Shown here in pieces: positions 5,964-53,322 of a DNA stretch of 64,000 nucleotides; the first letter of the stretch is position 1, and each line of letters starts with the position of its first letter. The DNA is from Deltaproteobacteria bacterium (GTDB taxonomy: Bacteria; Bdellovibrionota; JACOXK01). The notes under the pieces are model-generated. The model was not told the origin of the DNA. It worked only from the letters and a program-made list of their open reading frames with translations, and made no database searches. The stretch lies in NCBI GenBank assembly GCA_016186995.1, contig JACPKQ010000005.1:2593-66592 (forward strand), in the 5' to 3' direction. The position numbers and the translations under genes were made by a program.

Positions 5964-5976
5964 CTTTTTTTGCCTT

Positions 5977-6055: not shown

Positions 6056-6505
6056 TCAAGCGGCTAATTTTTTAGCATCAAATTTTAATGCATACTCTTT
6101 CTTAGATGATTTTTCTTCTAGGCTCTCATAAAGATGTGCTATTTCTTTTGGTTTAGCATTTAATTGAAAAAGTACATATAAACGAATATCTTTTTCTGTT
6201 GCCCAGGCCACATCAGTAGATTTATTTTTTGTTTTTTCCCATTTAATAACGCCTGCATGGGTTACATAAAATCGATTAGCGAACTCTGTTAAAGTCATCT
6301 CAAAATAATGACGGATAAATTTAATCTCATTTCCAGTTAATTTTGCGGGTTTCCAACAAAGTGCTTCCAAAACAATATCAGCTAGAAGATCATAGTTAAT
6401 ATTTGGTGTCCATTTTCCTCGCACTTTTATCATAGGTACATTTAAAAGTTGAATGGGGAATCCAAACCCATAATCAATGAATACTTTTTGAATTTTCTTG
6501 TCCAT
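6056..6505 (-). CDS. HTH antitoxin-like protein (MqsA-type Xre HTH)
   Basis: LTGNEIKFIRHYFEMTLTEFANRFYVTHAGVIKWE HTH; directly downstream of the DUF4258-like gene. Confidence 0.75.
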   Translation of the reverse strand: MDKKIQKVFIDYGFGFPIQLLNVPMIKVRGKWTPNINYDLLADIVLEALCWKPAKLTGNEIKFIRHYFEMTLTEFANRFYVTHAGVIKWEKTKNKSTDVAWATEKDIRLYVLFQLNAKPKEIAHLYESLEEKSSKKEYALKFDAKKLAA

Positions 6506-8371: not shown

Positions 8372-9127
8372 TTAAAAGTAAAAAATTTTCTTCAAACTCA
8401 AGCCACAGGCTGGGGCTGTAGGGCCTCGAATCATATGAGCAGGATTTATCTGACCACTACCGACAAGATACATAGCACCCACAATGTTTCGAATCATATG
8501 TTTTAAAAATCCTGTTCCTTGAATTTTAAAAACAAGAAAATCTTCTTCTTGTCTCCACGCAGCTTCTAGAATAGTTCGAAAAGTTGTTTTGGTACGACTG
8601 CCACTTGTTTGAAATAATCTAAAGTCATGTTCTCCTATTAAATATCCGCAAGCTTCATTCATGAGTAAAATATTTAATTTTTTAGGTCTCCACCAAGACA
8701 TTGTTTTATCTTTCTTAGTTGGATTTTTTCCATTAAAAATAGAGTACTCATAAAGTTTTGACACAGAGTCTTCCCGGGCGTGGAAACTATCTTGAACCTC
8801 TTCTGCCATAACAATACGAATATCTTCTGGTAAATATGAATTTATTTTTTGAACACAACTATTCAAGGGACGGAACGCAGGGCTTCCTGGATTCCAGCTT
8901 GTGCCTACGGCTGTAGGCTGGAATGACGGAGGTGGTGTAAAATGAGCAACTTGGCCTTCTGCATGAACACCCGCATCTGTTCGAGAAGCCCCATAAATAA
9001 TCACCTTTTGATGAAATATTTTATAAAGTGCTTCTTCTATTTTTCTCTGTATTGTGGGGCGTGTTTTCTGCCTTTGCCAGCCTAAATATTTGGCTCCATT
9101 ATATTTTATAGTGAGTTTTATTTTCAT
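8372..9127 (-). CDS. truA: tRNA pseudouridine(38-40) synthase, with in-frame palindrome insert
   Basis: Y.G..Y.GWQ.Q, GASRTDAGVHAEGQV, GFLKHMIRNIVG, TAPACGLSL. Confidence 0.95.
   Translation of the reverse strand: MKIKLTIKYNGAKYLGWQRQKTRPTIQRKIEEALYKIFHQKVIIYGASRTDAGVHAEGQVAHFTPPPSFQPTAVGTSWNPGSPAFRPLNSCVQKINSYLPEDIRIVMAEEVQDSFHAREDSVSKLYEYSIFNGKNPTKKDKTMSWWRPKKLNILLMNEACGYLIGEHDFRLFQTSGSRTKTTFRTILEAAWRQEEDFLVFKIQGTGFLKHMIRNIVGAMYLVGSGQINPAHMIRGPTAPACGLSLKKIFYF
8889..8928 (-). repeat. GTCAT palindrome in frame in truA (PSFQPTAVGTSWNP)
   Basis: CGTCATTCCAGC...GCTGGAATCC on the minus strand. Confidence 0.9.
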
Positions 9128-9305: not shown

Positions 9306-10586
9306 ATGTTTTATGATGTTATCATTATCGGTGGTGGTGCAGCAGGCCTTATGTGCGCCATTCAGGCTGGGTACAGAAAAAGAAAAGTACTTTTGATCGA
9401 CCATGCAAAAAAATTGGGAGGGAAAATCCTCATTTCAGGCGGAGGTCGGTGCAACTTTACAAATAAAGGCGCAACACCCAAAAATTATGTTTCGCACAAT
9501 CCCCATTTTTTTAAATCAGCCCTTTCCAGATATACGCCTTATGATTTCATAGAACTTGTCAAAAAATATAATATTTCATTTTATGAAAAAAAATGGGGCC
9601 AACTTTTTTGTACACACTCAGCACGCCCACTTCTTAATATGCTTCTTTCGGAAGCTCACAAAGCCAATGTAGAAAATTTACTCGATTGTAAAATAAAAAA
9701 AATTTCAGTTATCCGTCATTGCGAGGAGTCGAAGACGACGCGGCAATCCCATCGTGATAGCGATGAGATCACCACGGGTTCTTTCAGAACCCTCGTGATG
9801 ACAGCAAAGGATGACAATGAAAAATTTGAAATAGAAACAACCCAAAAAAAATTGAGTTGCTCTTCGCTTGTTATTGCTACAGGTGGTCTTTCTATACCTA
9901 AATTAGGAGCAAGTGGTTTTGGTTATAATCTTGCAAAACAATTTGGTTTAAGCATTGTTCAAACTTATCCAGCTTTAGATGGATTCATTTTAAACCCTCA
10001 AGAAATCAATTTTTTTGGAAAGTTGGCCGGCATTTCTTTGGATTGCATGCTTACTTGTAATGGAGAAAAATTTAGAGAAAATATACTTTTTACACACAAA
10101 GGTTTAAGCGGCCCTGCTGCGCTTCAAGCCTCTCTTTATTGGAACGAAGGAGATTCCATTTTTATTAATCTTCTTCCAGAACTTAATGGTTATGAGTGGC
10201 TTTTACAAAGAAAAAATCAGGGTGAACGTTTTAAAATCAAAAATATTTTAAAAGAAAAACTTCCCCACCACTTTGTTGATCATTTTTGCTTGAAATATTT
10301 TCAAAGTGAAAAATCACTAAATGAAATCAAAAATCAAGATCTTAAAAATCTTTCAAAAATTATTCATGCCTGGGAAATAAAACCCTTGAGTACCGTTGGA
10401 TACCATAAAGCTGAAGTAACCAGAGGGGGCGTTGATACCCATGAGCTTTCTTCAAAAACTCTTGAAAGCACAAAAGTAAAAGGGCTTTATTTTATTGGTG
10501 AAGTTGTCGATGTTACAGGGCAATTAGGTGGTTATAACTTCCAATGGGCCTGGGCTTCAGGCTGGGCTGCTGGACAAGTCGTTTAA
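9306..10586 (+). CDS. HI0933/BaiN-family NAD(P)/FAD-dependent oxidoreductase, with 30-aa insert
   Basis: GGGAAG, GKILISGGGRCNFTN, ATGGLSIPKLG, GEVVDVTGQLGGYNFQWAWASG. Confidence 0.95.
   Translation: MFYDVIIIGGGAAGLMCAIQAGYRKRKVLLIDHAKKLGGKILISGGGRCNFTNKGATPKNYVSHNPHFFKSALSRYTPYDFIELVKKYNISFYEKKWGQLFCTHSARPLLNMLLSEAHKANVENLLDCKIKKISVIRHCEESKTTRQSHRDSDEITTGSFRTLVMTAKDDNEKFEIETTQKKLSCSSLVIATGGLSIPKLGASGFGYNLAKQFGLSIVQTYPALDGFILNPQEINFFGKLAGISLDCMLTCNGEKFRENILFTHKGLSGPAALQASLYWNEGDSIFINLLPELNGYEWLLQRKNQGERFKIKNILKEKLPHHFVDHFCLKYFQSEKSLNEIKNQDLKNLSKIIHAWEIKPLSTVGYHKAEVTRGGVDTHELSSKTLESTKVKGLYFIGEVVDVTGQLGGYNFQWAWASGWAAGQVV
9714..9803 (+). repeat. two-hairpin GTCAT...ATGAC element in frame (RHCEE...LVMT, 30 aa)
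   Basis: Bounded by CGTCAT and ATGACA, 90 nt. Confidence 0.9.
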
Positions 10587-10625
10587 GAAGAAAAAAAATC
10601 AGGCAAAAGTTCGAAGATCCAGTAT

Positions 10626-11909
10626 TTAGATTCCCGCTAATGGCTCAAGCCTGAGTGCGGGAATGACAAAGGGGGATGGGGCTTTATTAATAAGATTTTC
10701 TGAGGTTGTTACTTCTCTCCAAATATCTGGATTTTCCATACATAAATAAAGAGGTTGATCATTTCTTTTTTCTAAAATCCACGCCCATATTTTTTGATAC
10801 ATATGAATTCTTATTTTTTTAGGATACCTAAACCTACCATCAAGACTTCGAACCATTTCTTGCCCTGCAAGCGGTGACTCACGCCATCTTAACTTCATGA
10901 TTGTTTTAAGCTCTCTTGTAAGCCTTAAATTACCAAGGCTGATCCACTCAATTTTTTTAAAATCTATTTTTTGTGCCATATGTTCAATCATATTTCTATA
11001 ACCTTCTTCCCAATTTTTGTAATAAACAATCGGGTCAAAATGAAACCCAATTTTATAACCCCTTTCTAAACACTTTTGAGCGGCCTCTAACCTTTCTGTT
11101 AAAGAAGAGGTTCCATGTTCATGGTTTTTTACAATCTCCTCTGGTGAAAGCGACCACGACACCACAGTTGACCCGCCTGGATTCATTTGAAGTAGGTTTT
11201 CAATATTATTTGTTTTTGTTTTAAGTTCTAAAATAACCCCACCCCCGTCATTCCCGCGAAGGCGGGAATCTATATCTCTAAAAAAAGGAACGAGGAGTCG
11301 AGAAATTCCTGTTATATGATCTAAGGCAAGGCTATCAGCATACTCTCCCGTACCAATACGCACAGAAGGTAGCCTCGCTTTCTGAATTCCAGCTTGTGCC
11401 AAAGGCTTCGGGCTGGAATGACAGCGATTTTCTAAAACCTTTTTCACTTTTTGAAGTAATTCTTCTATATTTGCATACACAACCATAGCCTGTTTATTAA
11501 GGTAATATTGTAAAAAGCAATATTCACAATCCATGTGACAATTTTGTGCAAAAGGAAAAATAAAATAATTACAACACATCATTCCAGGTTTACCTGCTGG
11601 GCAATGTTCAAAAACCTCCCCTTTATATTCTTGTATAAGAAGATGTTTTTTTCCTGTTTCTATCGAGCTTTTTAAACCTATTTCCTGAGGACGATCAATC
11701 AGTTCAATTCTGTCATCCCGGAAAACAATGTCACCCTGAACGCTTTCCCTGTCACCCTGAGTGCAACGAAGGGTATCATCACGAAGTATATTCTTCGGCT
11801 TCGGACATTGTTCAGATAACAAGGAAAAATAAGAAAGAATATTACGAGTCACTTCAGTATCTAAAACTTTTTTCTCAATAAAAATTTTTTCTGGAATAAA
11901 AGGTTTCAT
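10626..11909 (-). CDS. spore photoproduct lyase-like radical SAM protein with three internal inserts and a palindrome-derived C-terminus
   Basis: CHMDCEYC, RIGTGEYADSL, LELKTK, VVSWSL, GFHFDP. Confidence 0.88.
   Translation of the reverse strand: MKPFIPEKIFIEKKVLDTEVTRNILSYFSLLSEQCPKPKNILRDDTLRCTQGDRESVQGDIVFRDDRIELIDRPQEIGLKSSIETGKKHLLIQEYKGEVFEHCPAGKPGMMCCNYFIFPFAQNCHMDCEYCFLQYYLNKQAMVVYANIEELLQKVKKVLENRCHSSPKPLAQAGIQKARLPSVRIGTGEYADSLALDHITGISRLLVPFFRDIDSRLRGNDGGGVILELKTKTNNIENLLQMNPGGSTVVSWSLSPEEIVKNHEHGTSSLTERLEAAQKCLERGYKIGFHFDPIVYYKNWEEGYRNMIEHMAQKIDFKKIEWISLGNLRLTRELKTIMKLRWRESPLAGQEMVRSLDGRFRYPKKIRIHMYQKIWAWILEKRNDQPLYLCMENPDIWREVTTSENLINKAPSPFVIPALRLEPLAGI
10628..10668 (-). repeat. 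GTCAT palindrome forming the SPL-like C-terminus (VIPALRLEPLAGI*)
   Basis: TGTCATTCCCGC...GCGGGAATCT; the TAA stop follows directly. Confidence 0.85.
11246..11272 (+). repeat. GTCAT palindrome in frame in SPL-like gene (DSRLRGNDG)
   Basis: CGTCATTCCCGCGAAGGCGGGAATCTA. Confidence 0.92.
11383..11423 (-). repeat. GTCAT palindrome in frame in SPL-like gene (CHSSPKPLAQAGIQ)
   Basis: TGTCATTCCAGC...GCTGGAATTC. Confidence 0.9.
11711..11820. repeat. composite GTCAT/GTCAC element in frame in SPL-like gene (about 37 aa)
   Basis: Reverse complement closely matches intergenic 33094-33184 (CGAAGAATATACT...TACCCTTC...CAGGGTGACAGG...GCGTTCAGGGTGACA). Confidence 0.85.
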
Positions 11910-12622
11910 GCAAAATCTAAAAGTTTTTGAAAAGAATCCTGATCTTTTATTTTTTGAAGTGTTTCCAACTTTTTTTCAAAATCCTTTTTACCTTTTATTT
12001 TTATTTCAAACTCAAGATAAGCTTCTTCAAAACTCTGTGGATCTTTAAGTCGAATCCCTCCATCTAAAAAAATCTGTTTTTTTAAGGTTCTCCACCTTGC
12101 TTGTGTTTCTTTTAAATAAGGGTTTTCATATTCAAAAAGCCTTCTCTGAAAAGTATTTTTGGTAATAGACTCCGGATTGGCTGTGTGTCCCAATTCAGAA
12201 CTTAAACTTGTTTCATGGAACAAAGATCGAATTATATCTTTGATTTCTTTTTTCTCCCGCAAAGAAATATCTTCTAAAGACTCAAAATTTTTTTTAAATT
12301 CATTTCCATTTAAATTTAACTTTTCAGGCAAGCTCGCTAAAACATTTTGATTCTCTTCATTTAACCTTGAAAGCCTCACAGCTATCTTTAACGGTAAATC
12401 AAAACTCACCACCCATTTTTGAAGATCTTCCGTCACATGAAGAAGCTCAAGGTGATAATCTAAAACTGTTTCATGCGCCTCACACTTGAGCTTTGGAAGA
12501 TAATTTTCTATTGTTTCAAGACGCGAAAGCCCATGCTTTTCAAGCAACCACTTTAAAAGATGTGCTTTTTCAATCACATTGAAAGTGTTGGCAAAAAGCG
12601 CTGGATCAATATGATGAGACAT
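11906..12622 (-). CDS. ParB-like protein, apparently lacking the N-terminal ParBc domain
   Basis: Begins just before an N-x-x-EKA helical motif; coupled (ATGA) to the SPL-like gene; no GxxR motif. Confidence 0.55.
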   Translation of the reverse strand: MSHHIDPALFANTFNVIEKAHLLKWLLEKHGLSRLETIENYLPKLKCEAHETVLDYHLELLHVTEDLQKWVVSFDLPLKIAVRLSRLNEENQNVLASLPEKLNLNGNEFKKNFESLEDISLREKKEIKDIIRSLFHETSLSSELGHTANPESITKNTFQRRLFEYENPYLKETQARWRTLKKQIFLDGGIRLKDPQSFEEAYLEFEIKIKGKKDFEKKLETLQKIKDQDSFQKLLDFA

Positions 12623-12657: not shown

Positions 12658-14184
12658 TCAAGAAAGGTAAAATGAGGCCAGGCCAGTCGAAGGTATTTTT
12701 GACAACGTCAGGTTAAAAATACCGAGTCCCGTACGAGTGAAACGAGATACGGGATCCAGAATTTCTGGATTCCCGCCTTCGCGGGAATGACAAGGAGGTG
12801 CTCCTTCGCCTACTAGGTATGTCTTTTGACTGGCAGCTTCGATCATACCCTCTTTACTTAAGTAGGCGAGAGAATCTGCTGAAATATATTTTCTAATTTC
12901 TTCGATAGATTGTGATGAGGCAATCAGTTCTTCTCTTGTTGGGGTATCAATACCATAAAAACAACTGTGTGTTGTTGGCGGAGAAGAAATACGCATATGA
13001 ACTTCTTTTGCCCCGTTATCCCGAAGCATTTTTATAATTTTTCTAGAAGTGGTACCTCTCACCAAAGAATCATCAATAACAATCAATCTTTTTCCTTCAA
13101 TCACTTTTCTAACAGCATTCAGTTTTACCTTGACACCAAAATGCCTGATCGATTGCTGTGGTTCAATAAAAGTTCTTCCAACATAATGGTTTCGAATAAT
13201 TCCCATGTCATAGGGAATTCCACTCGTCTGTGCATAACCAATGGCAGCAGGCACCCCTGAATCAGGAACTGGTATAACCATATCCGCTTCGACAGGGCGT
13301 TCCCGTGCCAATCTTTGTCCCATGTTGCGCCTTATTTCATAAACATTTTGTCCATAAACTTCACTATCAGGTCGTGCAAAATAAACATATTCAAAAATAC
13401 AACTTTTTTGTGGGGTTTCAGTAATAGCTTGAATACTATGAAGACCATCATCGCGTATATCTAAAAGCTCTCCTTTTTCAATTTCACGAATGGATTCTGC
13501 TCCGATCAAATCAAACGCACATGTTTCTGAAGCAATCACATAAGAATAGGTGACTTCGTTTTTGAGATCCCCGCTATTGCGCTTTGCGCTTCGGGCGGGG
13601 ATGACATTTGGTAATCTTCCTAAAACAAGAGGCCGAAATCCGTAAGAATCTCTTGCAACAAGAAGCCCATGTTTTGTCAGTATGATAAGAGAAAAAGCAC
13701 CCTCCACTTTTTGCAAAGCTTCAATCACTTTTTCTTTAAAATTTATTTTTTTTGATTTTGCTATGAGGTGAAGAAAAATTTCAGTATCAGAATGAGATTG
13801 AAAAATAGCTCCATCACTTTCTAACTCGTCTCTTAATTTTTTTGCATTGGTTAAATTACCATTATGTGCAAGCGCCAGAAAACTTCCTTGAAAACTTGCC
13901 ATAAGAGGTTGTACATCCGCCACATCATGTGCCTGCGTGGTTGAGTAACGAACATGCCCAATAGAAGCAAGCCCCTTTAGCTTTCTTAAGGATTCTTCAT
14001 CAAAATTATCTGCAACAAGCCCCTTACCTTTTTTAAGCACCAGTTCATTATTATGGAGAGAAACAATGCCACACCCTTCTTGACCTCTGTGCTGAAGCGC
14101 ATAAAGCCCAAGATAAGTCATATTGGAAGCTTCGGTATGATTCCAAATACCAAAAACGCCACATTCTTCTTTAAATTTATCCAT
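12658..14184 (-). CDS. purF: amidophosphoribosyltransferase (likely start MDKFKEECG); internal insert and aberrant C-terminus
   Basis: [39 protein letters not shown]. Confidence 0.95.
12727..12792 (-). repeat. two-hairpin GTCAT element in the purF 3' end ([22 protein letters not shown])
   Basis: TGTCATTCCCGCGAAGGCGGGAATCC followed by TCCCGTA...TACGGGA. Confidence 0.9.
13564..13606 (-). repeat. GTCAT palindrome in frame in purF ([14 protein letters not shown])
   Basis: TGTCATCCCCGC...GCGGGGATCTC. Confidence 0.9.
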
Positions 14185-15844
14185 GGATGAGTCCAACCAT
14201 AACGATAAGGGGTGTTGGCAAAATACTTTTTCCATTGGTTTCATTATAAAAACTTACATTCCCACTCACAACCGGCACATTCATCTTGCGGCAGGCCTCA
14301 CTCATTCCTAAAACAGTTTGCTCAAACTGCCACATAATTTCTGGATTTTCTGGACTTCCAAAATTAAGACAATCGGTGAGCGCTAGAGGAATAGCCCCCA
14401 CACTGGCCAATTTTTCAACGGCTTTCAACACAATATATTTGCCTCCTTCAAATGGATTTAAATAAGTCAGGTATTCTGCTGAACCCATGGCCAGAGCTAA
14501 AATACTCCCGTTTTCCCTTACCCGGATTAAAGGTACGTCATGATAACAAACAAGTGTGTTTGTACCCACCATAGAATCATACTGCTCCATAATGGAGGCT
14601 TTTGTCATCGCGAGGTTTTCGGTAGAAAACCGTGGCGATCTCATCACCTTCGGTGATGGGATTGCTTCGCTACCGCTCGCAATGACAGATGATGAAGGCG
14701 TATAGCTTTTTCGAGGGCGTTCATAAAGAGGAGCACCTGAAACAAGAGGCTCTACAGGAATTTCTCCAATCTCCTCACCTTTCCATTCAATTTTTACATA
14801 AGGAGAATCAATAACCTCTCCTATAACAACAGCATCTAAATCCCATTTTGAAAAAAGTTTTTTTGTTTCTTCTTCAAATCCTTTTTTTACACAAAGAAGC
14901 ATACGTTCTTGTGATTCACTCATCATCACTTCTACTGGCGTCATATTTTTTGCTCTTAAAGGAACCTTTGAAAGATTGATTTTAACGCCACTTTGAGCCC
15001 GATCTGCCATCTCAAATGTTGAGCACGTAAGCCCTGCAGCACCCATGTCTTGAATACCAACAATGTAATCTGTTTGCATAGCTTCAAGACAAGCCTCTAA
15101 TAGAAGTTTCTCCATAAAAGGATCACCCACTTGAACCGTAGGTTTTTTCTCATAAGCTTCGTCATCAAATTCAGCTGAGGCCATAATAGCCCCGCCAATA
15201 CCATCGCGCCCTGTTTTAGCACCTACATACATAATAGAGTTTCCAATACCCGAAGCATTGCCTAAAAAGATTTTATCTTTTTTGACAATTCCAATATTAA
15301 AGGCATTCACAAGTGGGTTATGTTCATAAGAAGGATCAAAAAATACATCGGTTCCAACTGTTGGAACACCCATGCAATTTCCATAATCGCCAATCCCCTT
15401 CACAACCCTTGAAATAAGATATTTTGTTTTTGCACTCTCTGGGTTTCCAAATCGAAGCATGTTAAGGGAAGCAACGGGTCTTGCACCCATTGTAAAAACA
15501 TCTCTTAAGATACCCCCCACCCCTGTGGCAGCGCCTTGATAAGGCTCTAAATAAGAGGGGTGATTATGACTTTCCATTTTAAAACAAGCAGCCCACCCAC
15601 CCCCAATATCGACGATGCCTGCGTTTTCTCCGGGCCCTTGAATCACGTTTGGCCCCGTGGTTGGAAAATTTTTTAGAATATTTTTAGAGCTTTTATAAGA
15701 ACAATGTTCGCTCCACATAGCAGAAAAAAGAGATGTTTCTAAATCTGTGGGGTCTCTTTTAAGGTAATCTTTAATAAGGTCATACTCATATTCAGTGAGG
15801 CCCAATTTTTTAGCTAAAGCTAGATTCCCGCCCAGATTTTTCAT
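14177..15844 (-). CDS. purL: phosphoribosylformylglycinamidine synthase subunit PurL, C-terminally short, with 28-aa insert
   Basis: [49 protein letters not shown]. Confidence 0.95.
14603..14687. repeat. two-hairpin TGTCAT...ATGACA element in frame in purL (VIASGSEAI...LAMT)
   Basis: Bounded by inverted GTCAT tags; one half near-identical to 50686-50725. Confidence 0.9.
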
Positions 15845-16754: not shown

Positions 16755-16766
16755 AATTAACCCCTT

Positions 16767-16875
16767 TGTCATTGTGAACATTTTCCTTGTCATTCTGAGT
16801 GGTCCCTCTGTCATCCTGAGGCGCAGCCGAAGGATATAGTTTATGATTATACCCTTCACTTCGTTCAGGGTGACA
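16767..16875 (+). repeat. intergenic cluster of three GTCAT-tag starts plus one full two-hairpin element
   Basis: GTCAT at 16768, 16789, 16810; ends TTCAGGGTGACA. Confidence 0.85.
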
Positions 16876-16889
16876 GAAAAGACAAAAAT

Positions 16890-17586
16890 CTATAATACCG
16901 CCTCCATGCGATGAAATACTTCTTCATAAGATTCTGTGATTTTTCCTAAATCTCTCCTGAAACGGTCTTTATCTAATTTTTCACCTGTTTCACTATCCCA
17001 AAAACGACAACTGTCTGGAGAAATTTCATCAGCTAAAATAATTCTTCCATCTTCTGTTCTTCCAAACTCTATTTTAAAATCTACTAAAATAATCTGACAC
17101 TTTAAGAAAAACTCTTTTAAAATTTTATTAATCTTAAAAGCCATTTCTCTGAGCACTTCCATTTCTTCTGGGGCTGCTAGTTGCAATGCATAAACATGTT
17201 CTTCTGGCATGAGAGGATCACCCAAAGCATCATTTTTATACAATAATAGGGGTTGCTAATATGCCACCTTCTGTAAGGCCGTATCTTTTTGCAAAGCTTC
17301 CTGCAATGCGATTTCTTACAATCACTTCCAAAGGAATGATTCGAACTTTTTTGGCCACCATTTCACGATCTGAAATTTTTTTTATAAAGTGACTAGGCAC
17401 ACCCTTTGTTTCTAAAAGTTGAAATAGTAGACTTGAAATTTTATTATTGAGAATACCCTTGTTTTCTAACACCGCTTTTTTCTGATTATTAAAGGCTGTC
17501 GCATCATCTTTAAAATAAATGATATATTCTTCTGGATTTTGAGTTTTGTAGACGATTTTAGCCTTACCTTCGTATATTTTCTGCAT
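16890..17586 (-). pseudogene. purC: SAICAR synthetase split by a frameshift near 17240
   Basis: N-half YEGKAK, FKDDATAFN, IPLEVIVRN ends PIIV*; C-half YKNDALGDP, LVDFKIEFG, DEISPDSCRFW; the expected E-F-Y codons are missing. Confidence 0.85.
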
Positions 17587-32218: not shown

Positions 32219-32244
32219 AGATTCCTGCCTTCGCAGGGATGACA
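32219..32244 (-). repeat. GTCAT palindrome (intergenic)
   Basis: TGTCATCCCTGCGAAGGCAGGAATCT on the minus strand. Confidence 0.85.
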
Positions 32245-32257
32245 GAGAGTTCGTTGA

Positions 32258-32310
32258 GACAACTACAGCGAGCCATGAAGCGGAAGACGCTGCCATTTCA
32301 AGAACCTAAG
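32258..32310 (-). mobile_element. partial (left-end) copy of the 158-bp MITE-like element
   Basis: Reverse complement CTTAGGTTCTTGAAATGGCAGCGTCTTCCGCTTCATGGCTCGCTGTAGTTGTC matches the start of copies B and C. Confidence 0.8.
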
Positions 32311-32644: not shown

Positions 32645-33034
32645 ATGAAAATCAAATTTCTTATTATTTTGATTCTCTTAAGCCTTTTTACAGCCGTCAC
32701 CTATTATTTTTACTCACTTAAAAAAGATAAACTTCATATTGTTCTCACCCCTCATGCTATTCAGATTTCTCTTGAGCTTGTTTCAACCAAACTTCCGATT
32801 GAAGATGATGTTGAAATTCATACAAGCCTTTTTGATTTGGAAGATAATGAAATTCTTTTTTTAAGAAGTAGAATTTTAGAAAAAACAAGAACGAAGTTTA
32901 ACTGGCACGAAACAGACCTCAACTTAGAACCAGGGCACTATAAAACTTTGACACAAATTATTTCTTTTCCAAAGCTTTATCCAGAAAAAATTCTTTTTGA
33001 AAAAACTTCGAAATTAAAAATTAAAGAAAAATAA
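32645..33034 (+). CDS. hypothetical N-anchored membrane protein
   Basis: 129-aa ORF, N-terminal TM. Confidence 0.6.
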   Translation: MKIKFLIILILLSLFTAVTYYFYSLKKDKLHIVLTPHAIQISLELVSTKLPIEDDVEIHTSLFDLEDNEILFLRSRILEKTRTKFNWHETDLNLEPGHYKTLTQIISFPKLYPEKILFEKTSKLKIKEK

Positions 33035-33048
33035 TTTTTCAATAATAC

Positions 33049-33184
33049 TAGATCCCGGATATTGCTAACGCAATTCCGGGATGACATTTTTTCTGTCATT
33101 CTGAGCAACGCGAAGAATATACTCTCGTATGCAAATTATACCCTTCACTGCGTTCAGGGTGACAGGAGTGCGTTCAGGGTGACA
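33049..33184. repeat. intergenic cluster of GTCAT/GTCAC palindromes between convergent genes
   Basis: GATCCCGGA...TCCGGGATGAC then GTCATTCTGAGC...TTCAGGGTGACA (tag end duplicated). Confidence 0.88.
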
Positions 33185-33192
33185 TTTCGAGG

Positions 33193-36100
33193 TCATTTAT
33201 AAGGTTTAGCCCGTTCAAGCACCTCTTCAATCAACTCAAATGTCTCTTGAAATTGAGAGTGTCTTTGAAAAAGCCTTGGCAAAACTTCTTCAAGTACAAT
33301 TTCTTTAGCTGTGCGTATTGTTACTTGAATGCTTTCCTCCCCCATTAAACTGAGTAACTTTTGAAGTTTAGATTCATTTACTTTCTTGACCCACAGATGA
33401 GGGGCAAACTCAATGTGTGGACCAAAAACAAGGGGCAGGGTTTTTACTTTAAAATGAGGTCCATGGAAAAATTTTATTTTGCAAAGATGTGAAAGGGAAA
33501 GCCCTTCTTTTTTTAAAAAAAGAGGAAACTCACTCATCTGTGTTTGAGTTATTTCTAAAATGTGAGTTGCATCACCTACACCTTTTAGTTTTTCATTGAG
33601 TCTTGTATGGAAAAGTTTATTTAAAAGACCTTGAAGTAGAGATAATCCTTCTGTGGGGTTTTGTTTTAAAAAACTAACAAATTCTTGAGGAGACAGTGCA
33701 CTCTTACCCCTCTCTCCTACTTTTCTCGTATAAGAAAAACTTTCTGTTTGAGGTAATTTCTCTGCTAATTTTTCTAATTTTTGAATCAGGTCTTCAGGCA
33801 TACCAGCATGGGGTATTTCTAAAAGTGCTTTTCTTAAATAAGAAAGTCCCTCTCCTGTTTGTAAAACTCTTTGAAGCTCTGGACTGTGTTCAATGGTTCG
33901 CATAAGCCTGCTTAACTGACCTAAAGACTCTCTTAAAAGATATTTTGAAAGCTTGATCGGCCTTGATAAAGCTAAACCATCTAAAACAAGTGAAAATTTC
34001 AACCAATTGATAGAGCCATAAGAGGCAAGGTGTTCTAGAAAACCTTCAGGATCATTGAATCCGTAAAGCTCCCTACGCAACCCATTAAAATCTTCGTAAC
34101 TTCCAAAACGCGCTTCTGATTCTGGAAGATTAGACATGAGATTATGATACTTATTTTGAAGCTCTTGATAATCTCTTACATAAACATAATAGTATTCAGA
34201 ACCATCAAGATAAGCGATGCTTGAAAGAAAAAATAAAGTTCCTACACTACCCGTTAAAAAGAAACTTCCTAAAAGAAAAACAGGCACACTTGCATAGCGA
34301 AAGATTATTTCTTTTGTCTGAGCACTTGCAAGATAGTTCTTATGTTCTTCCTTCATCATTTGAAATATTGGTTCAAGTAAAATTTTATCCTCACCTTCTA
34401 AAACTTTTTCTTCAACAACAGGGTTTATAAGAAGAAATAGTTTTTCTTCATAAGAGTTTCTTCTTGAAACCTCTCTCAAACCTTCATGAACACCTTTTAA
34501 ACTTATTTTAAGAGATTGATCGAGGATCTCCATTAAAGGATGTTTTGGAAGATCTCGAACTGAAACTTTCGCAAAATCTTCTTGGACAATACCCTGCTCT
34601 ACTAAAACTTCATAAAAATACTTTGGATTTTTAAAAAACTCTTCCATCGATTGCTCACTTACATGAGACATAAGATAAGGGGCTCCACTCATAATGCCTA
34701 CCCACTTCGCATTTAAAACAAAAAGTTCTATTAAATCATTTTTAATCTCTTCTGTAAGTGCTTCTATTTCTTGGGGATCTAAAGTTTGGTCTTTCAAAGC
34801 TTTAAGCTTTTCTTTTTGAGCTTCAATTTTACTTTCTTCTTCTTTGAGTTTTTGATCTAAAGATGAAAGCTCATAACTCAACTCTAAAGCTTGCATCATC
34901 CACTCTTTTCTTTTATTCCAAAAATCATAGAGGGGGTTTTCTTGAACAATTAAATTTTTAAAGGTTTTGAGCTTTTCATTATATGTATAATTAGGAATTT
35001 CAGCCTCTTCACTTAAAATATAACTACACTTAAAAAACAATTCATTTTCTATTTCTCCTAGTTTTAAAACCATTAAAGAAGAAGGATCAGAAAATCTTTT
35101 AAAAAACTCTTCTACAAGATGATCAATATGAATACTTCGTGGATAGTTATCTCTTCCTAAAATACCTGTAATCTCTATATAGAAAGGATCAACCAACTGC
35201 TCAAGATATATCTCTATTTTCTCTTTATAACGTTTTAACGCTTTTTCTTTTTTCTGAAGGATCTGTTGATAAAGATGTTCCATAAAATCTTTATGAAAGA
35301 GAAGTTGTGAGTTTTCTACCCTTTCATCTTTCCCTAAAAAAAGGGGGAGTTTAGGTAAAAGAAGTTTTTTCTCTCTAAACTCAAAATCAAGTGAGTCTGG
35401 AACTTTAAGATAAGGTTTTATGTTTTCTGGATGCTCATAAAAATCAGAAAGTGAAGTTGCTGCCACAACATTGTTATGGAGCAAAAACTCATAGGTCACA
35501 ACACGAGCTCTTTCTAAAATATTTTCTTTAAGGAAGTTTTCATAAGGATTTATCTTTTTTTGTAAAGTCTGATAATTCTCCAAAGCCTCAAAATAACCTT
35601 CTGGGTAAATGGGTTGCTCTGTATTGTATTGTATTTGTTTTGTGAGCTCTGCAAACTTTTCTTTGGCTTCGTCTCGTTTAGTTTTAAGATTGTTATAAGT
35701 TTCAAGATCAAAAGATTCAACACTCCCCCGCGCCTCTTTTTCAACAATAAACATAATAGGTGCTGAAACTTTTACTCTCACCTCATCTCCAAAACTTTGA
35801 GTTTCAAATTGAGGGTGTGCTTCAAGAGCTATATCAAGTCCCGTTGTAAAAACATCTTTTGAAATGTGAAGTTCATCTAAAAATTCACCCTGGAATTTTA
35901 AAGCATTATGTGACTTCCATGGATGATAAGAAATATATTTTTCATAAATATTTTTGATGAGATCTAAATAATCTTTAAGGATAAAAAACTTTTCAACAAC
36001 ACTAAACCCTGTTTGAGAAACATACCCTGCTTGAGCTTTAATTTCTGAATCATAATGGTAAGCTCTGAACGAAGGCTTTAAAGTATTAAAAAACTCGTCA

Positions 36101-38393: not shown

Positions 38394-39842
38394 TTATAAT
38401 TTTGAAAAAACATTTTTAATAACCTCAAAATCTTTTTCTTGAATCGTTTTAAAATCAAGAACAAAATGATTTTGAATGATTCTTCCTAAAATAGAGGGGG
38501 TTTTATTTCTAAAAAACTTAGCTAAATCTAAAGCCTTAAGTTTCGGATGAAAAAACATGAGACCAAAACTCTCAATATTTTCATCTGGTAAGCTTCCACC
38601 CCCACCTTGAGCTTTTGTTTCAATGATTTTGAAATCACAAGACTGGATCCCGGATAATGCGGAGCCTGCCCCCGACTCTGATCGGGGGCATTTCCGGGAT
38701 GACAAATGGGATCTAGGAATGACAGGGGGTGAGCTTATCATTTTTAAAAATCTCTCTATCTTTTCTTTTGTTTGAAACCCTGTTTCACAAAGCATTTTTA
38801 ACGTAGGAATTTTTTCTTGAAAATCATCCTCGCAATACAGTTTTAAAAACTCTCCTAAAATAAAAAGCCCTATCTTGTCCATTCGAAGGGCTCGAACAAG
38901 TGGGTTTTTCTTCATTTGAGAAATGACTTTTATGGATCCTAAAAGAATACCCGCCTGAGGCCCACCTAAAAGCTTATCCCCACTTAAACTTATGATATCT
39001 ACCCCTGTTTGAAGGCATTGTTCAACTGTAGGTTCCTCTCTATAAGAAACAACCTGTCCAGAGCCTAAATTAAACATAACAGGTATGTTTTTTGATTTTC
39101 CTAAGGCCACTAATGATTCTAAAGAAACAGAATGTGTAAACCCACTCTGTTTAAAATTGCTTTGATGAACTTTGAGTAAAAGTGCCGTATTACTATGAAT
39201 AGCCTTTTCATAATCTGAAATTTTTGTTTTGTTTGTGGTACCTACCTCTTTAAGCAAAACACCACTTGCTTTCATAACATCAGGTATTCGAAAGCTTCCA
39301 CCTATTTCAACAAGCTCTCCTCGAGAAACAATAACTTCTTTTTCTTGAGCCAAAGTGTTTAAAGCCACAAGAACAGAGGCTGCATTATTATTGACAACCA
39401 AAGCATCTTCACAGTGAAAGAGTGCACATAAAATTTCTTCAACATAGCGATGTCTCTCTCCACGCTTTCCAGTTTCGATATCAAGTTCTAAATCACAGTA
39501 AGATTCAAAAAAAGGTTTTGCTTTTTCCCATAAAGGCCCCGGCAAAAGTGCACGCCCTAAGTTGGTATGCAACAAAACACCCGTTCCATTCACAACAGGT
39601 GAATAATTAAAATCTTTCCATTTTTGAGAAAACCACTGCATCTTTTTACAAAGCACATCTTTGATGCATTGAGGTGTGTCCCCAATGCATAGAATTTGTT
39701 CCCGTACTAATTCAAGTATCTTTCTTGCGCTGTGTTTTTGAAGTTTGAGAGGTAAATGTGAAAAAGTATTTTTAAATTCTTCACTGTTTATAAACTCATT
39801 GATACTTGGAAGTTCTTTTAAGTTTTTTTGTTTTTCTTTCAT
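38394..39842 (-). CDS. selA: L-seryl-tRNA(Sec) selenium transferase, with about 27-aa insert
   Basis: [48 protein letters not shown]. Confidence 0.93.
38644..38724 (-). repeat. tandem GTCAT palindromes in frame in selA ([11 protein letters not shown]...SGIQ)
   Basis: Two GTCAT tags; TCCCGGA...TCCGGGA stem enclosing TGCCCCCGA...TCGGGGGCA. Confidence 0.88.
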
Positions 39843-41485: not shown

Positions 41486-41567
41486 AAAACTATTAGTAGA
41501 GGAAAGAACTTCTTTTTTCAAGAAACTTAGCGCTCTGTCCCTGTTGCTACATACAACCTTGGTTCTT

Positions 41568-41725
41568 AAAATGGTTGCTATCTTTCGCTTCATGGCTCAC
41601 TACACTCGTCCTACCGGATTCTTCATTAATCCCGTAAGTGCTAAAGCACTGTCCGGGATAAGAGAGTTCTGAATATTTGCAAAGATGGGCTGCGCTTTAT
41701 TTCCGCTTCAGATAGCAACCATTTT
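41568..41725 (+). mobile_element. 158-bp MITE-like element, copy A
   Basis: Perfect 16-bp TIR AAAATGGTTGCTATCT/AGATAGCAACCATTTT; central ATCCCG-AGTGC-TAAA-GCACT-CGGGAT hairpin. Confidence 0.8.
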
Positions 41726-41755
41726 TTCACATAGCTTCGAAATAAACCTATAGGG

Positions 41756-42057: not shown

Positions 42058-42705
42058 ATGAAAGCAAAACTTGCTAAATTTGAGTCTTTTAGTTCACGAA
42101 ATGCAACCCACCTTTTAAGAAGGTTGTGGCATTTAGGGTGTTCTCTCTTACTTGCCTATGCTTATTGGGAGTTTTTCACAAAGGAGCAAGCCCTTCTTGT
42201 CATGACAACACTGGGTACTATTTTTCTTTTAGGTGATAGCTTTCGTTTAAAGTACAAATCACTTAATAAAGCCATTTTTAAAATCATGGGTGGATTTATG
42301 CGTAAATCAGAAATGCAATCCCAATCTGCCATGATGCCTTTTATTCTTTCTCTTTTTATTGTCATAGTTCTCTTTCCAAAACCTGTTGTTATACTTTCTA
42401 TTCTTTATCTAGGGGTTGGAGACCCTGTTGCTTCTATTGTGGGCATTCACTATGGAAACACAAAAATTTTTGGAACGCGTAAAAGTTTAGAGGGTTTAGT
42501 TGCCAATTTCTTTACAACTACCATTATTACTTACTTTGTTTTGTCTGCTTTTGGCCTTGGTGGAAGTTATATTGTTCTTATTTCTCTTATTGGCGGAATA
42601 GGTTCTGCTGTTTCTGAAAGTCTGCCACTGACAACTGACGATAATCTTCATGTACCTATTATTTCAGGCTCTGTCCTCTGGCTTGTGCTCACTCTCCTTC
42701 AGTAA
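42058..42705 (+). CDS. CTP-dependent diacylglycerol/polyprenol kinase or cytidylyltransferase family membrane protein
   Basis: RRLWH, GVGDPVASIVG, KSLEG, DDNLHVP. Confidence 0.85.
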   Translation: MKAKLAKFESFSSRNATHLLRRLWHLGCSLLLAYAYWEFFTKEQALLVMTTLGTIFLLGDSFRLKYKSLNKAIFKIMGGFMRKSEMQSQSAMMPFILSLFIVIVLFPKPVVILSILYLGVGDPVASIVGIHYGNTKIFGTRKSLEGLVANFFTTTIITYFVLSAFGLGGSYIVLISLIGGIGSAVSESLPLTTDDNLHVPIISGSVLWLVLTLLQ

Positions 42706-42757
42706 TTCCTAGCAATGCTCAAAAAGCCCAATTCACATCTTTGCAGCTTAGGTTCTT

Positions 42758-42915
42758 AAAATGGTTACTATCTTCCGCTTCATGGCTCGCTACACTTGTC
42801 ATACCGGATTCTTCATTATCCCGTAAGTGCTAAAGCACTGTCCGGGATGAGAGAATTTGGAATTATTATAAACCGTATGCTGCGCTTGACTTCCGCTCCA
42901 GATAACAACCATTTT
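42758..42915 (+). mobile_element. 158-bp MITE-like element, copy B
   Basis: Collinear with copy A; TIR 14/16. Confidence 0.8.
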
Positions 42916-42975
42916 TTCACATAGTTATGAATTATGTCGTGTTTATGAAAGAATCTTAACTCGTGTTCATGTGAA

Positions 42976-49363: not shown

Positions 49364-52000
49364 ATGTTCAGAGACGTGTTACTCTTTAAAGATATGCATC
49401 TAACTCTTTCTCAGGGTCTTAAAGTTACGGTTGAAGAATCCCATCGTTCTCCTGTTGTTTCAGCTCAAATTTGGCTTGATGTGGGTAGTTTTCACGAAGG
49501 AAAGGGCGAAGAAGGTGTAGCTCATTTTTTTGAACACATGCTTTTTAAAGGAACTCAACGGAGAAAACTAGGCGAAATAGCACAAGAAGTTGAATCTCAT
49601 GGTGGAGAAATGAATGCCTATACGAGTTTTGATCAGACGGTATATTATATCACCATTCCCTCTCGTCACTGGGCATTAGCCCTAGATATATTATCCGATG
49701 CAGTCCTTCATCCACTTTTTGATCCACAAGAAATAGAAAATGAAAAACTTGTCGTCTTTGAAGAAATGGCAAGATCCCACGACTCTCCTCATGATATGGC
49801 AAGTGAACTGTTACTCAAAAACATTTTTCAAAACCACCCTTATGGTAAACCTATCTTGGGGAAAAAAGAAACAATCCAAAATTTAAATCAGAAAAAACTC
49901 ATTCAGTTTCATAGAAAATGGTACACACCCAATCGAATGACACTTGTTGTAGCAGGCGATGTGAACTCAAAAAATATATTGGCACAAGCCAAAAAACTTT
50001 TTTCACATAAAAAAAAATCTCCAATCAAAAAAGACTGGATTCCCCGATCAAGTCGGGGGATGACATTTTATTTCCGGGATGACTATTTTAAAAAAAAACT
50101 TACCTTTTGTCTTAAACCAGCACATATCCAACTCTCTCACTCTCACTTAGCTTTTCTAACTCCACCTGTTGTACACTCAGATATCCCAAAACTTGATCTT
50201 TTATCTTCTATTTTGGGACATGGAGAAAGCAGTCGCCTCTACGTCGCCACAAAAACGAAGAAAAAATTAACAAGTTCCATTCACTGTGGAATCTATACAT
50301 TAAAAAAAGCAAGCGTATTTTATATTTCTTCTGTTCACATCCCAGAAAATCTTATTCCCCTCACAAGAGAAATTGTTACACAAATCAATAATATCAAATT
50401 AGCTCATATCACCCCACAAGAGATAGACATTGCTAAGAAAAACATCTTAAGTGAAAAAATCTATGAAAAAGAAACAACAGATGGTCTTGCACGTAAGGTA
50501 GGCTTTTATGCTACTTATTTTAATAATCCAGGAGAAGAACAGAAATATTATGAAAGTATCAAAGATACAACCACTTCAGAACTTAAAGACATAGCTCATA
50601 AATATTTAAATCTTTCTCAGTCGACTTTTGTTAATTTATATCCTGAAAAATACTCCCCAAAAATAAAAGAATTTAAAAACATGATGAGATCGCCACGGTT
50701 TCTTTTGAGAACCCTCGCGATGACAAGAGAAAAAACAACTCATAAAATAAAACAAAAAAGTATTAAAAAATATGTTTTGAATGGCTTGACCGTCCTTTTT
50801 GTTGAAGATCACTCGCTACCTATCATTTCTATGAGAGCAACTTTTTTTGGAGGTTCTCTCTATGAAACAAAGCAAAAAATAGGTCTTACACAGGTACTCA
50901 CCCGTGCCATGACAAAAGAAACTTTGGAAACTTCGCAAATAGAGCTCGCTCAAAAAGTAGAAGAAATAGCAGGAAGTTTAGAGGGTTTTAGTGGTAGAAA
51001 CAGTTCTGGACTCAGCTTAGAATTTTTAAGTGAATATGAAAACCTAGCACTAGACCTTTTCTTTGAAATCTTACTGCACCCAAAATTCTCTCCTAAAATA
51101 CTCTCTTATCTCAAAAAACAAACTCTTGAAGAAATAAAGTATGAAGAAGATAATCTTGCAAGCAAAGCTTATAATAATTTCCTTAGAAAACTATATCCCC
51201 ATCATCCTTATGGATATCCACTTAATGGTACTCCACAAACAATAACCTCACTAAAAACTAAAAATCTCTTCAAAGCTCATAAAAGCATTTTCATTCAAAA
51301 TCCTGGAATATTAACTATCGTGGGAAGCTTTTCGGAAGACTTTAGAGAAAAAATTATTGAAGCTGCTAAAAAATGGGAGAAAAGAACTAAGCCCCATAAA
51401 AAATTTCCTAAAATTCTACCTTTAAAATCAAATCAGGAGCTTTATGAGCACAAAACTAAAAAACAAGTCAATATTATACTTGGTTTTTTAGGAGCAAAAA
51501 TTTCGGATCAAGACCGTTACGCTCTACACATACTTTCTACAATCCTTTCTGGACAAAGTGGAAGACTTTTTATGAATTTAAGAGATAAAGAAAGTTTAGC
51601 TTATTCACTTCATGCAAGTAATATAGAGGGACTTCTACCAGGACATTTTTATTTTTACCTAGGTACCTCCCCAGAGAAATTAGGAAAAGCTTTAAATCTA
51701 CTTAAAAAAGAAATTGAAACCCTTAGAAAGGAAAAAATTTCAAGAACAGAAATAACAAGAGCCAAAAAATATATTATAGGAAAGCATGAAATGAGTTTGC
51801 AAAAACTGAGCACCCAAAATGCCTATTATTCTTTTGATGAACTTTACGGATTAGGATACGCAGAAACTTTAAATTACCATAAAAAAATTTCTCAGATAAC
51901 TCAAAAAGATTTAGAAAAAGTGATTCACAAATATCTAAACTTAAATTCTTCTATTTTATCTGTTGTAGGCCCTGTAAAGAATAAAACAACTGATAAATAA
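49364..52000 (+). CDS. M16 family zinc peptidase (two fused halves), two in-frame inserts; start 49364 or 49394
   Basis: GVAHFFEHMLFKG (HxxEH), NAYTSFDQT. Confidence 0.93.
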   Translation: MFRDVLLFKDMHLTLSQGLKVTVEESHRSPVVSAQIWLDVGSFHEGKGEEGVAHFFEHMLFKGTQRRKLGEIAQEVESHGGEMNAYTSFDQTVYYITIPSRHWALALDILSDAVLHPLFDPQEIENEKLVVFEEMARSHDSPHDMASELLLKNIFQNHPYGKPILGKKETIQNLNQKKLIQFHRKWYTPNRMTLVVAGDVNSKNILAQAKKLFSHKKKSPIKKDWIPRSSRGMTFYFRDDYFKKKLTFCLKPAHIQLSHSHLAFLTPPVVHSDIPKLDLLSSILGHGESSRLYVATKTKKKLTSSIHCGIYTLKKASVFYISSVHIPENLIPLTREIVTQINNIKLAHITPQEIDIAKKNILSEKIYEKETTDGLARKVGFYATYFNNPGEEQKYYESIKDTTTSELKDIAHKYLNLSQSTFVNLYPEKYSPKIKEFKNMMRSPRFLLRTLAMTREKTTHKIKQKSIKKYVLNGLTVLFVEDHSLPIISMRATFFGGSLYETKQKIGLTQVLTRAMTKETLETSQIELAQKVEEIAGSLEGFSGRNSSGLSLEFLSEYENLALDLFFEILLHPKFSPKILSYLKKQTLEEIKYEEDNLASKAYNNFLRKLYPHHPYGYPLNGTPQTITSLKTKNLFKAHKSIFIQNPGILTIVGSFSEDFREKIIEAAKKWEKRTKPHKKFPKILPLKSNQELYEHKTKKQVNIILGFLGAKISDQDRYALHILSTILSGQSGRLFMNLRDKESLAYSLHASNIEGLLPGHFYFYLGTSPEKLGKALNLLKKEIETLRKEKISRTEITRAKKYIIGKHEMSLQKLSTQNAYYSFDELYGLGYAETLNYHKKISQITQKDLEKVIHKYLNLNSSILSVVGPVKNKTTDK
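50036..50083 (-). repeat. GTCAT palindromes in frame in M16 peptidase (WIPRSSRGMTFYFRDD)
   Basis: GGATTCCCCGA-TCAAG-TCGGGGGATGAC...TCCGGGATGAC on the plus strand. Confidence 0.88.
50686..50725 (-). repeat. GTCAT palindrome in frame in the M16 inter-domain linker (RSPRFLLRTLAMT)
   Basis: GAGATCGCCACGGTTTCTTTTGAGAACCCTCGCGATGACA on the plus strand. Confidence 0.88.
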
Positions 52001-53112: not shown

Positions 53113-53141
53113 GTATTCTTCTTTTTCAAATTAAGTTCTTA

Positions 53142-53300
53142 AAAATGGCTACTATCTTCCGCTTCATGGCTCGCTGTAGTTGTCCCACATGAATTCTTCG
53201 TTATCCCGTAAGTGCTAAAGCACTGTCCGGGATGAGAGTATTCTGAATTATTATAAACCGTATGCTGCGCTTGACTTCCGCTCCAGACAGTAACCATTTT
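53142..53300 (+). mobile_element. MITE-like element, copy C (159 bp)
   Basis: Collinear with copies A and B; TIR 14/16. Confidence 0.8.
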
Positions 53301-53322
53301 TTGACATAGACTCGAATTTTTT

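Follow-up and report, generated by a model that had tools for sequence, protein, structure and literature searches.

Four in-frame copies of a CGTC/TGTC-tagged hairpin repeat in an SPL-family radical-SAM gene of a Bdellovibrionota-like groundwater lineage

How can an enzyme gene take up repetitive DNA four times and still be read from its start to its stop codon? The question is raised by a gene of the spore photoproduct lyase (SPL) family of radical S-adenosylmethionine (radical-SAM) proteins, found in a stretch of 64,000 nucleotides (hereafter the 64-kb window) of contig JACPKQ010000005.1 (positions 2,593 to 66,592; assembly GCA_016186995.1), whose source is a groundwater metagenome and whose closest homologues and syntenic contigs belong to metagenome-assembled genomes of Bdellovibrionota or 'Deltaproteobacteria'. 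An earlier inspection of the letters and their reading frames (the sequence-only reading) had recognised in this gene four different members of one repeat family, adding about 60 internal residues plus the C-terminus to a protein whose CxxxCxxC and later motifs remain in frame, and had proposed either purifying selection with repeated tolerated insertion or a hotspot. In the analysis presented here, the four inserts are very probably copies of a known, non-autonomous hairpin repeat, filtered by selection, in an SPL gene that is still at work.

The gene is open over all its 427 codons and its product is assigned to PF20903 (Pfam; E 3.8e-30, 105.4 bits against a gathering score of 27), which bears out its description as an SPL-like radical-SAM gene; the same is true of the motifs, given that the cluster cysteines C124, C128 and C131 are intact and that 50 columns are invariant in 46 aligned SPL sequences, a count that includes the window protein by definition. 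A search of 5.8 billion proteins returned 729 homologues, the 45 closest of which are 351-387 residues long against 427 in the window protein; the nearest of all (351-366 residues, 62-66% identical over aligned columns) come from Bdellovibrionota/'Deltaproteobacteria' metagenome bins, a look-up of the window protein by exact sequence found nothing, and a scan of genome contigs with it found only relatives of 37-55% identity. When aligned to sets of 11 and of 45 homologues, the window protein has three internal segments that none of them shares, namely residues 30-64 (35 residues), 163-178 (16) and 216-224 (9), 60 in total, encoded by 11718-11822, 11376-11423 and 11238-11264; the C-terminus FVIPALRLEPLAGI (10629-10670), an extension of 13 residues, is likewise private. 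The inserts thus add 73 residues, or 17% of the protein, in four insertions within 1.3 kb. Comparison with orthologues, the check proposed by the sequence-only reading, found these inserts in none of the 45 homologues, and the coordinates given earlier proved correct to within a few bases.

All inserts are GC-rich hairpins with an unpaired YGTC tag, a stem that starts with A-T and T-A pairs and a CYR tail, and they represent, as had been noticed, four subtypes of one family (Table 1): class I (classes are defined below) is represented by inserts 2, 3 and 4, each of a different subtype, insert 1 is a composite, and perfect 8-bp stems are retained in three of the four. Since in insert 1 a decayed inverted unit follows the full class II unit, its last two units constitute a head-to-head dimer; its near-twin in intergenic DNA at 33.1 kb is confirmed by 84% complementarity between 11748-11779 and 33135-33166 and by the colinearity of the whole composite with 33080-33195, and the composite is also colinear with the one between purC and purS. 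Insert 2 encodes CHSSPKPLAQAGI and has a 79% twin inside truA (8882-8942); insert 3, on the gene strand, encodes DSRLRGND, a peptide also listed for the Rickettsia conorii repeat CGTC-1/RPE-6; insert 4 provides the final 13 residues (VIPALRLEPLAGI), with the peptide pattern VIPA..AGI at the C-terminus of the protein and with the TAA stop overlapping the tail of the unit.

In the AlphaFold2 model of the protein (pLDDT 82, pTM 0.84), whose top structural match is the SPL structure 4FHC (Foldseek; TM 0.83, E 8.6e-24), residues 39-60 of insert 1 and residues 411-427, at insert 4, are disordered (pLDDT <50 in both cases); insert 2 sits between helix 148-164 and strand 183-187 (pLDDT 58-68), and insert 3 between helix 202-217 and strand 225-231, abutting the end of the helix. 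In radical-SAM barrels, helix-to-strand loops such as those of inserts 2 and 3 lie on the face opposite the cluster and the substrate site.

The protein has the PF20903 profile, the CxxxCxxC motif and the SPL fold, and thus shares with spore photoproduct lyase SplB (PDB 4FHC) the fold (TM 0.83), the Pfam family and the cluster motif; it differs in that the SplB equivalog cut-offs are not reached (NCBIfam; TIGR04070, 117.6 bits against 400; TIGR03886, 60.7 against 437.55) and in that the hosts here are non-spore-formers. Because of the score of 117.6 against 400, it is regarded as a member of the SPL family yet not as an SplB equivalog. In a pairwise phmmer alignment, Glu189 (~11343-11345), within the motif GTGEYADS that is partly invariant in the subfamily of the window protein, aligns with what we take to be the position of the catalytic H-donor cysteine in Geobacillus SPL; its presence there suggests a chemistry or a substrate other than those of true SplB. 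The 238-residue ORF (open reading frame) immediately upstream accompanies the SPL gene in three relatives as well (loci L125, L127 and L128, where the partner has 222-225 residues), and because the pair is conserved, the two probably function jointly.

Whether such a gene is still under constraint can be asked of its residues and of its rate of change. Of the 77 positions conserved in at least 90% of the 45 homologues, the window protein keeps 75, as compared with 73-76 in six relatives that lack the inserts; averaged over 39 outgroup sequences, its identity (41.1%) equals that of the same six relatives (40.4-41.1%), so that no acceleration of the substitution rate is seen. Moreover, the probability that three neutral internal insertions would all come in frame and free of stops is about 0.01. 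These three results support purifying selection with repeated tolerated insertion, and relaxed selection across the gene, named by the sequence-only reading as the outcome that would speak against it, has left no sign of decay either in the residues kept or in the distance to the outgroups. The dN/dS comparison recommended with it was also made; non-synonymous divergence (dN) from relatives is 0.28-0.32, while synonymous divergence (dS) is saturated (1.6 to >4, or undefined), rendering the ratio uninformative, and residue retention and relative rate were used instead. As far as this evidence reaches, the gene does not appear to be decaying and looks functional.

The inserts, GC-rich in a host genome of 35% GC, belong to a family of which 25 units were curated within the window. 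The tag is CGTC or TGTC in 23 units (GGTC and TGTT in the other two), the first stem position is A-T in all 25 and the second is T-A in 21; of the 125 cells at positions 1-5, 123 hold Watson-Crick pairs, with two or three pair types at each of positions 2-5, so that stem pairing is maintained by compensatory change. Ten stems are perfect over 8 bp, three have a single mismatch and twelve are class II, in which an inner helix accompanies an outer stem of 5 bp. Class I units have an 8-bp stem (ATTCCCGC, ATTCCAGC, ATCCCGGA, ATCCCCGC and others), a loop that measures either 4 nt or 15-42 nt and a tail reading CTA, CCA, CTC, CTT or TCA; in class II units the 5-bp stem is followed by GAG...CGAAG, often with an inner helix (TGTCACCCTGAG.., TGTCATTGCGAG.., TGTCATCGCGAGG..). 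A loop of 4-5 nt occurs in the canonical copies at 5976, 11246, 12769, 32221 and 53085, and one of 15-42 nt in inserts 2 and 4, at 13567, at 38647 and elsewhere; head-to-head dimers lie at 9714-9803, 14603-14687, 16809-16875 and 33094-33165, besides that of insert 1. At least eight stem variants coexist within the 64 kb.

Searching the full-text literature for the repeat as a literal string returned no paper, and at gathering thresholds Rfam found only one tRNA in the window; the family was recognised by keywords instead. CGTC-tagged REPs carry the tag CGTC, often TGTC, an 8-9 bp stem starting with A-T pairs, a loop of 4-5 nt and a 3-nt tail near CCA; they occur mostly as head-to-head dimers, have intragenic copies and no associated transposase (Di Nocera, De Gregorio and Rocco 2013, BMC Genomics, PMC3733652). 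In the same source, CGTC-1 is equated with Rickettsia RPE-6 and with Neisseria dRS3, and CGTC-4 with RPE-4. The window units share with these REPs the tag, in class I the 8-bp stem starting A-T/T-A, in the canonical copies the 4-nt loop, the CCA-like tail, the dimers, the intragenic copies and the lack of a nearby transposase; they differ in that many copies show either a two-tier stem or a loop of 15-42 nt, in their at least eight stem variants, and in a host group that is not among the five phyla treated in the available sections of PMC3733652.

The Neisseria copies have been redefined as a 28-nt NTS, CGTCATTCCCGCGMAVGCGGGAATCYRG (Chenal et al. 2025, Nat Commun, PMC11893778). Insert 3, at 27 of 28 positions identical, and likewise the unit in purF (12765-12792) are one mismatch away from this consensus; furthermore, the published pattern of the Ssn-related motifs (SRM) matches three times in the window, once in insert 3, against 0.05 matches expected from 100 dinucleotide shuffles. 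Besides the consensus and these matches, the window shares with NTS/SRM the arrangement as oriented, multicopy, clustered hairpins with a 5' tag. It differs in that the 64 kb hold no ssn gene, in that most units, with a longer loop or with an inner helix above a stem of 5 bp, do not fit the published pattern, in its Bdellovibrionota-like host, and in that more than half of its sites are intragenic, an aspect that the available parts of PMC11893778 do not address.

The closest precedent for the genic copies is provided by RPE-6 (= CGTC-1) and RPE-4, which are likewise found in frame in conserved housekeeping proteins, sometimes twice per gene, in places compatible with the fold and with identical peptides. 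Window units are in frame and absent from orthologues not only in SPL, but also in truA, the HI0933-like gene, purF, purL, selA and the M16 peptidase; their peptides DSRLRGND, CHSREGGN and VIPA...AGI stand beside DSRFRGND, CHSRESGNP and VIPAKAGI, which are among those of the intragenic CGTC-1/RPE-6 copies of R. conorii (PMC3733652 Additional file 3), a correspondence that indicates the same repeat. The present host, however, is not a Rickettsia and is not known to be intracellular; Rickettsia RPE-1 measures ~150 bp against 24-60 nt for the window units, and four sites in one 1.3-kb gene exceed the examples given in the available sections of the published work. GTAG REPs and REPINs, associated with RAYT, resemble the window units in being short palindromes with an unpaired 4-nt tag, frequent inverted doublets and an enzyme acting on single-stranded DNA that is thought to be involved; here, however, the tag is YGTC, no RAYT/Y1 transposase is found among the window ORFs, and the enzyme that the literature connects with YGTC hairpins is a GIY-YIG nuclease and not an HUH Y1 transposase. 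Judged by their sequence, the window elements are CGTC/TGTC-tagged REPs, kin of RPE-6 and of NTS-SRM. The in-frame presence of this CGTC-REP/RPE-6/NTS-SRM family in genes is already documented; what is new is the host lineage and the high load on one enzyme.

How the units are distributed bears both on their history and on the hotspot alternative. A strict tag-plus-hairpin scan, applied alike to the window and to ~62 kb of syntenic DNA of relatives, found 17 units in the former and only four AT-rich chance matches, without GC-rich stems, in the latter; since the syntenic DNA holds no comparable GC-rich units, the expansion is specific to this lineage. The window contains 21 insertion sites, 13 of them in ORFs, which cover 87% of the sequence; the density of sites is about four times higher in non-coding DNA (P = 0.003), an excess to be expected if selection removes most genic insertions. 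Every intragenic site leaves its host ORF open, and the hairpin units themselves have 4.0 of the six frames open, against 3.3 for random segments. The other genes with in-frame units are truA, the gene of the HI0933-like flavoprotein, purF (twice), purL, selA and the M16 peptidase gene (twice); genic units are found both along and against the direction of their gene, and another unit lies at the start of purS.

Under uniform placement, four sites in the SPL gene would be improbable (permutation P ~0.002); ten of the 21 sites, however, fall within 8.8-16.9 kb (P = 4e-4), and given this local density the four sites have P = 0.08, in tests that were post hoc and concern a single 64-kb window. The hotspot proposed by the sequence-only reading therefore stands as a regional excess, while a hotspot specific to the SPL gene was rejected. 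Within the same region lie the in-frame units of truA, the HI0933-like gene, purF and purL and the unit at the purS start; those of selA and the M16 peptidase gene are farther along. Outside the window, the class I core YGTCATTCCCGC-N4-GCGGGAATC was found by exact match at no fewer than 120 loci in the species-representative genome set, in Bacteroidota, Chloroflexota, Planctomycetota, Nitrospirota, candidate phyla radiation (CPR) groups, Vampirovibrionales, Bdellovibrionales, Neisseria and many Proteobacteria, and the class II core TGTCACCCTGA-N7-GAAGGGTAT at 113 loci or more with a similar taxonomic spread. In all four groundwater samples, the word depth of the metagenome rises abruptly, from ~5-10 to 60-1780, at the hairpins in 11238-11304, 11707-11773 and 14535-14788, so that very many other genomes of the groundwater community must carry them; the contigs of the SPL locus break at the repeats, where the depth is 60-890-fold.

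A candidate for the enzyme that handles these hairpins comes from the literature and from other genomes. SsnA is a single-domain GIY-YIG protein of 94 residues, which binds and cuts the NTS only as single-stranded DNA, and across phyla genes of the Ssn type (cd10448) are flanked by SRM (PMC11893778). In a Methylotenera bin (L043), a GIY-YIG ORF of 94 residues has NTS copies on both flanks, and in unrelated genomes the distance between a single-domain GIY-YIG ORF and a class II unit is 25-131 nt for six such ORFs; in view of these cases, both kinds of unit present in the SPL gene adjoin Ssn-like genes elsewhere. At two loci of unrelated genomes (L196, 4090-4500; L212, 6070-6411) the small GIY-YIG ORF beside class II hairpins reads into hairpin-encoded peptide (..SAQDD.. 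and ..LSLTKGSA, respectively), so that nuclease genes can carry or abut hairpins. By analogy, the window hairpins may be handled by an Ssn protein as single-stranded DNA.

Taken together, these observations are consistent with the following course of events. A non-autonomous GC-rich hairpin of the CGTC/TGTC REP or SRM kind would have expanded in an AT-rich, Bdellovibrionota-like groundwater lineage, possibly spreading by way of single-stranded DNA on which a small GIY-YIG nuclease of the Ssn type, with its gene in another part of the genome, would act. Units would land anywhere, singly or as head-to-head dimers, and most gene-borne copies would be removed by selection; to survive in a gene, a copy would need a length that keeps the frame, no in-frame stop and a permissive loop or protein end, and it would then be translated as additional loop residues. 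The SPL gene would have accumulated four such survivors and would still be a working gene.

Several points weigh against this account. The closest relatives are only 62-66% identical and dS is saturated, so that a recent relaxation of selection would not show; no SPL allele free of inserts was found among the contigs of the four samples. Neither Ssn/GIY-YIG nor RAYT, IS110 or any other transposase was found in the window with a GIY-YIG regular expression, tblastn with an Ssn-like protein and Pfam searches of all ORFs of at least 110 residues; neither a nuclease nor a transposase domain is present in the repeat-flanked ORFs at 32645-33034, 42058-42705, 6056-6505 and 53139-53636, two of which resemble membrane proteins, and the remaining large ORFs are, according to Pfam, ordinary chromosomal genes. 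Finally, Ssn has been shown to cut hairpins and not to transpose them (PMC11893778), and the published limits on loop and stem do not cover the units of class II or those with long loops.

These points leave room for other explanations, among which an incipient pseudogene, unlikely as it is, comes foremost: selection would have been relaxed recently, the repeats would have accumulated, and the ORF would be open only for lack of time. Such a history would suit a gene of which 17% (73 residues) was acquired through four insertions in 1.3 kb, which lies in a repeat-dense stretch (ten of 21 sites in 8.1 kb) together with a purL short by ~176 residues, and whose insert 3 abuts the end of a helix; it is difficult to reconcile with the low probability (P ~0.01) of three neutral insertions all in frame and free of stops, with the 75 of 77 conserved positions kept and the absence of excess outgroup divergence, with an ORF still open in a stop-prone genome of 35% GC although insert 1 has decayed as a repeat, and with the in-frame hairpins of the nearby, essential-looking purF, truA and selA. 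Mis-assembly, the other outcome that the sequence-only reading had set against its proposal, is unlikely and is not borne out: over 10376-12300, the Logan contigs of four groundwater samples do not differ from the window sequence, single contigs from two to four samples cross inserts 2, 3 and 4 unchanged, overlapping contigs tile insert 1, and one reading frame of 427 codons is kept over all junctions. That the assembler threaded repeats into the SPL gene is accordingly highly improbable, even though unitigs break at repeats, no single contig covers all of insert 1 and a real error, 8 nt missing at 17240, lies nearby. As GC-rich hairpins within AT-rich coding sequence, the inserts resemble mitochondrial GC clusters and byp elements, and might accordingly never reach the protein, either because they are excised like introns or because translation bypasses them, as happens in some AT-rich mitochondria; this is scarcely credible, since inserts that are skipped need neither keep the frame nor be free of stops, yet all intragenic sites of the window leave the ORF open, and since the RPE-carrying proteins of Rickettsia are reported to be expressed with the insert retained (PMC3733652).

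A different kind of alternative grants that the repeats are real, and gives them a purpose. The hairpins, as DNA or mRNA, or the peptide loops might serve the host as marks for Ssn cleavage or recombination by which the exchange of this gene block is controlled, or as modifiers of the enzyme, a co-option that we consider decidedly improbable. In Neisseria, NTS copies cluster non-randomly around particular genes and modulate transformation (PMC11893778); REPs have been noted in DNA-repair and pseudouridine-synthase genes (PMC3733652), and in the window the genes with units include truA and one of the SPL family; the window sites are regionally clustered and three of the four SPL inserts have perfect 8-bp stems. 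On the other hand, housekeeping genes of unrelated kinds and intergenic DNA hold the same hairpins, in either orientation, relatives do without them, the inserts are confined to loops and low-confidence regions away from the conserved motifs, and the clustering was tested post hoc in one window. It is equally doubtful, if marginally less so, that the 8-kb block comprising truA, the HI0933-like gene, the SPL pair and the pur operon was chosen as a target, either because Ssn nucleases use intragenic hairpins to control recombination or uptake, as with Neisseria NTS, or because repair and RNA-modification genes are preferred across phyla, as Di Nocera et al. suspected.

As this example shows, the invasion of proteins by RPE-type elements is not peculiar to Rickettsia, since a Bdellovibrionota-like organism from groundwater has the same hairpin, in frame, in its housekeeping genes; this extends the current picture and does not change it. 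One enzyme of known fold with four inserts is a convenient natural test of the tolerance of radical-SAM barrel loops, and a lineage with at least eight covarying hairpin variants is a good place to study the co-evolution of hairpins with Ssn nucleases and the origin of new copies.

Table 1. Positions in the 64-kb window of the SPL-family gene, its inserts and partner, and other hairpin units
Feature	Position	Strand	Remarks
SPL-family radical-SAM gene	10626..11909	-	427 codons, no internal stop (ORF list)
Radical-SAM cluster codons	11517..11540	-	C124-x3-C128-x2-C131 (CHMDCEYC); columns invariant in 46-sequence alignment
Upstream partner ORF	11906..12622	-	238 aa, no Pfam family; stop overlaps SPL start
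Insert 1, composite	11711..11807	+	net gain 35 aa (residues 30-64)
Insert 1, partial unit	11711-11723		TGTCATCCCGGAA
Insert 1, partial unit	11729-11749		TGTCACCCTGAACGC..
Insert 1, full class II unit	11750-11776		TGTCACCCTGAGTGCAACGAAGGGTAT
Insert 1, decayed inverted unit	11788-11807		..ATTCTTCGGCTTCG-GACA
Insert 2, class I, long loop	11383..11423	-	TGTC-ATTCCAGC-(17 nt)-GCTGGAAT-TCA; net gain 16 aa (163-178)
Insert 3, canonical unit	11246..11273	+	CGTCATTCCCGCGAAGGCGGGAATCTAT; net gain 9 aa
Insert 4, class I, long loop	10627..10668	-	TGTC-ATTCCCGC-(19 nt)-GCGGGAAT-CTA
Insert 2-subtype unit in truA	8888..8928	-	in frame
Second canonical NTS-like unit, purF	12765..12792	-	TGTCATTCCCGCGAAGGCGGGAATCCAG; in C-terminal extension, CHSREGGN
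Four-unit intergenic cluster	33052..33184		between convergent genes; includes insert 1 twin
Unit cluster between purC and purS	16759..16899
In-frame unit elsewhere	8891-8928		the truA unit listed above
In-frame unit elsewhere	9714-9816
In-frame unit elsewhere	12727-12792		includes the purF unit listed above
In-frame unit elsewhere	13567-13606
In-frame unit elsewhere	14603-14687
In-frame unit elsewhere	38647-38704
In-frame unit elsewhere	50039-50065
In-frame unit elsewhere	50689-50725

The contigs of the individual samples (X1, X2, X3) also provided some observations on the neighbouring pur genes. One X2 contig joins 16758 to 16900 with 'GA' in between and lacks the 141-nt cluster of 16759-16899, which another X2 contig retains; as read, the cluster-free contig would place purC and purS in one frame. 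It may tentatively be taken as an empty-site allele and a hint of turnover, being a single contig with a 22-nt anchor. In purC itself (ORFs 16890-17243 and 17236-17586), the gene looks split by a frameshift at 17240/17241; the X2 and X3 contigs have eight extra bases, AGAAAATT, after 17240, and the X1 contigs end or start exactly there. Because of these extra bases, the frameshift is attributed to an error of joining in the window assembly and purC is probably intact; decay of the neighbourhood, which the frameshift had led us to suspect, was dropped from consideration.

The truncation of purL, by contrast, is real, given that contigs from four samples cross the junction unchanged: the gene (14177-15844) encodes 555 residues against 722 for the PurL of the syntenic relative, which aligns only through residue 546, and is without the last ~176 residues, comprising the second AIRS_C domain, with purF (12658-14244) beginning right after the truncation point. 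Two linked substitutions, 16213 G>A and 16216 C>T, are present in X2 and X3 contigs and not in X1, and since they differ between samples, more than one strain of the organism is present.

A separate, MITE-like repeat of ~180 nt, bounded by terminal inverted repeats (AAAATGGTTRCTATCT...) and with the hairpin ATCCCGTAAGTGCTAAAGCACTGTCCGGGAT at its centre, occurs in three full copies at 41554-41743, 42744-42933 and 53128-53318, with a partial inverted copy at 32236-32287; its copies are intergenic or lie at gene ends, and two of them flank the membrane-protein ORF 42058-42705.

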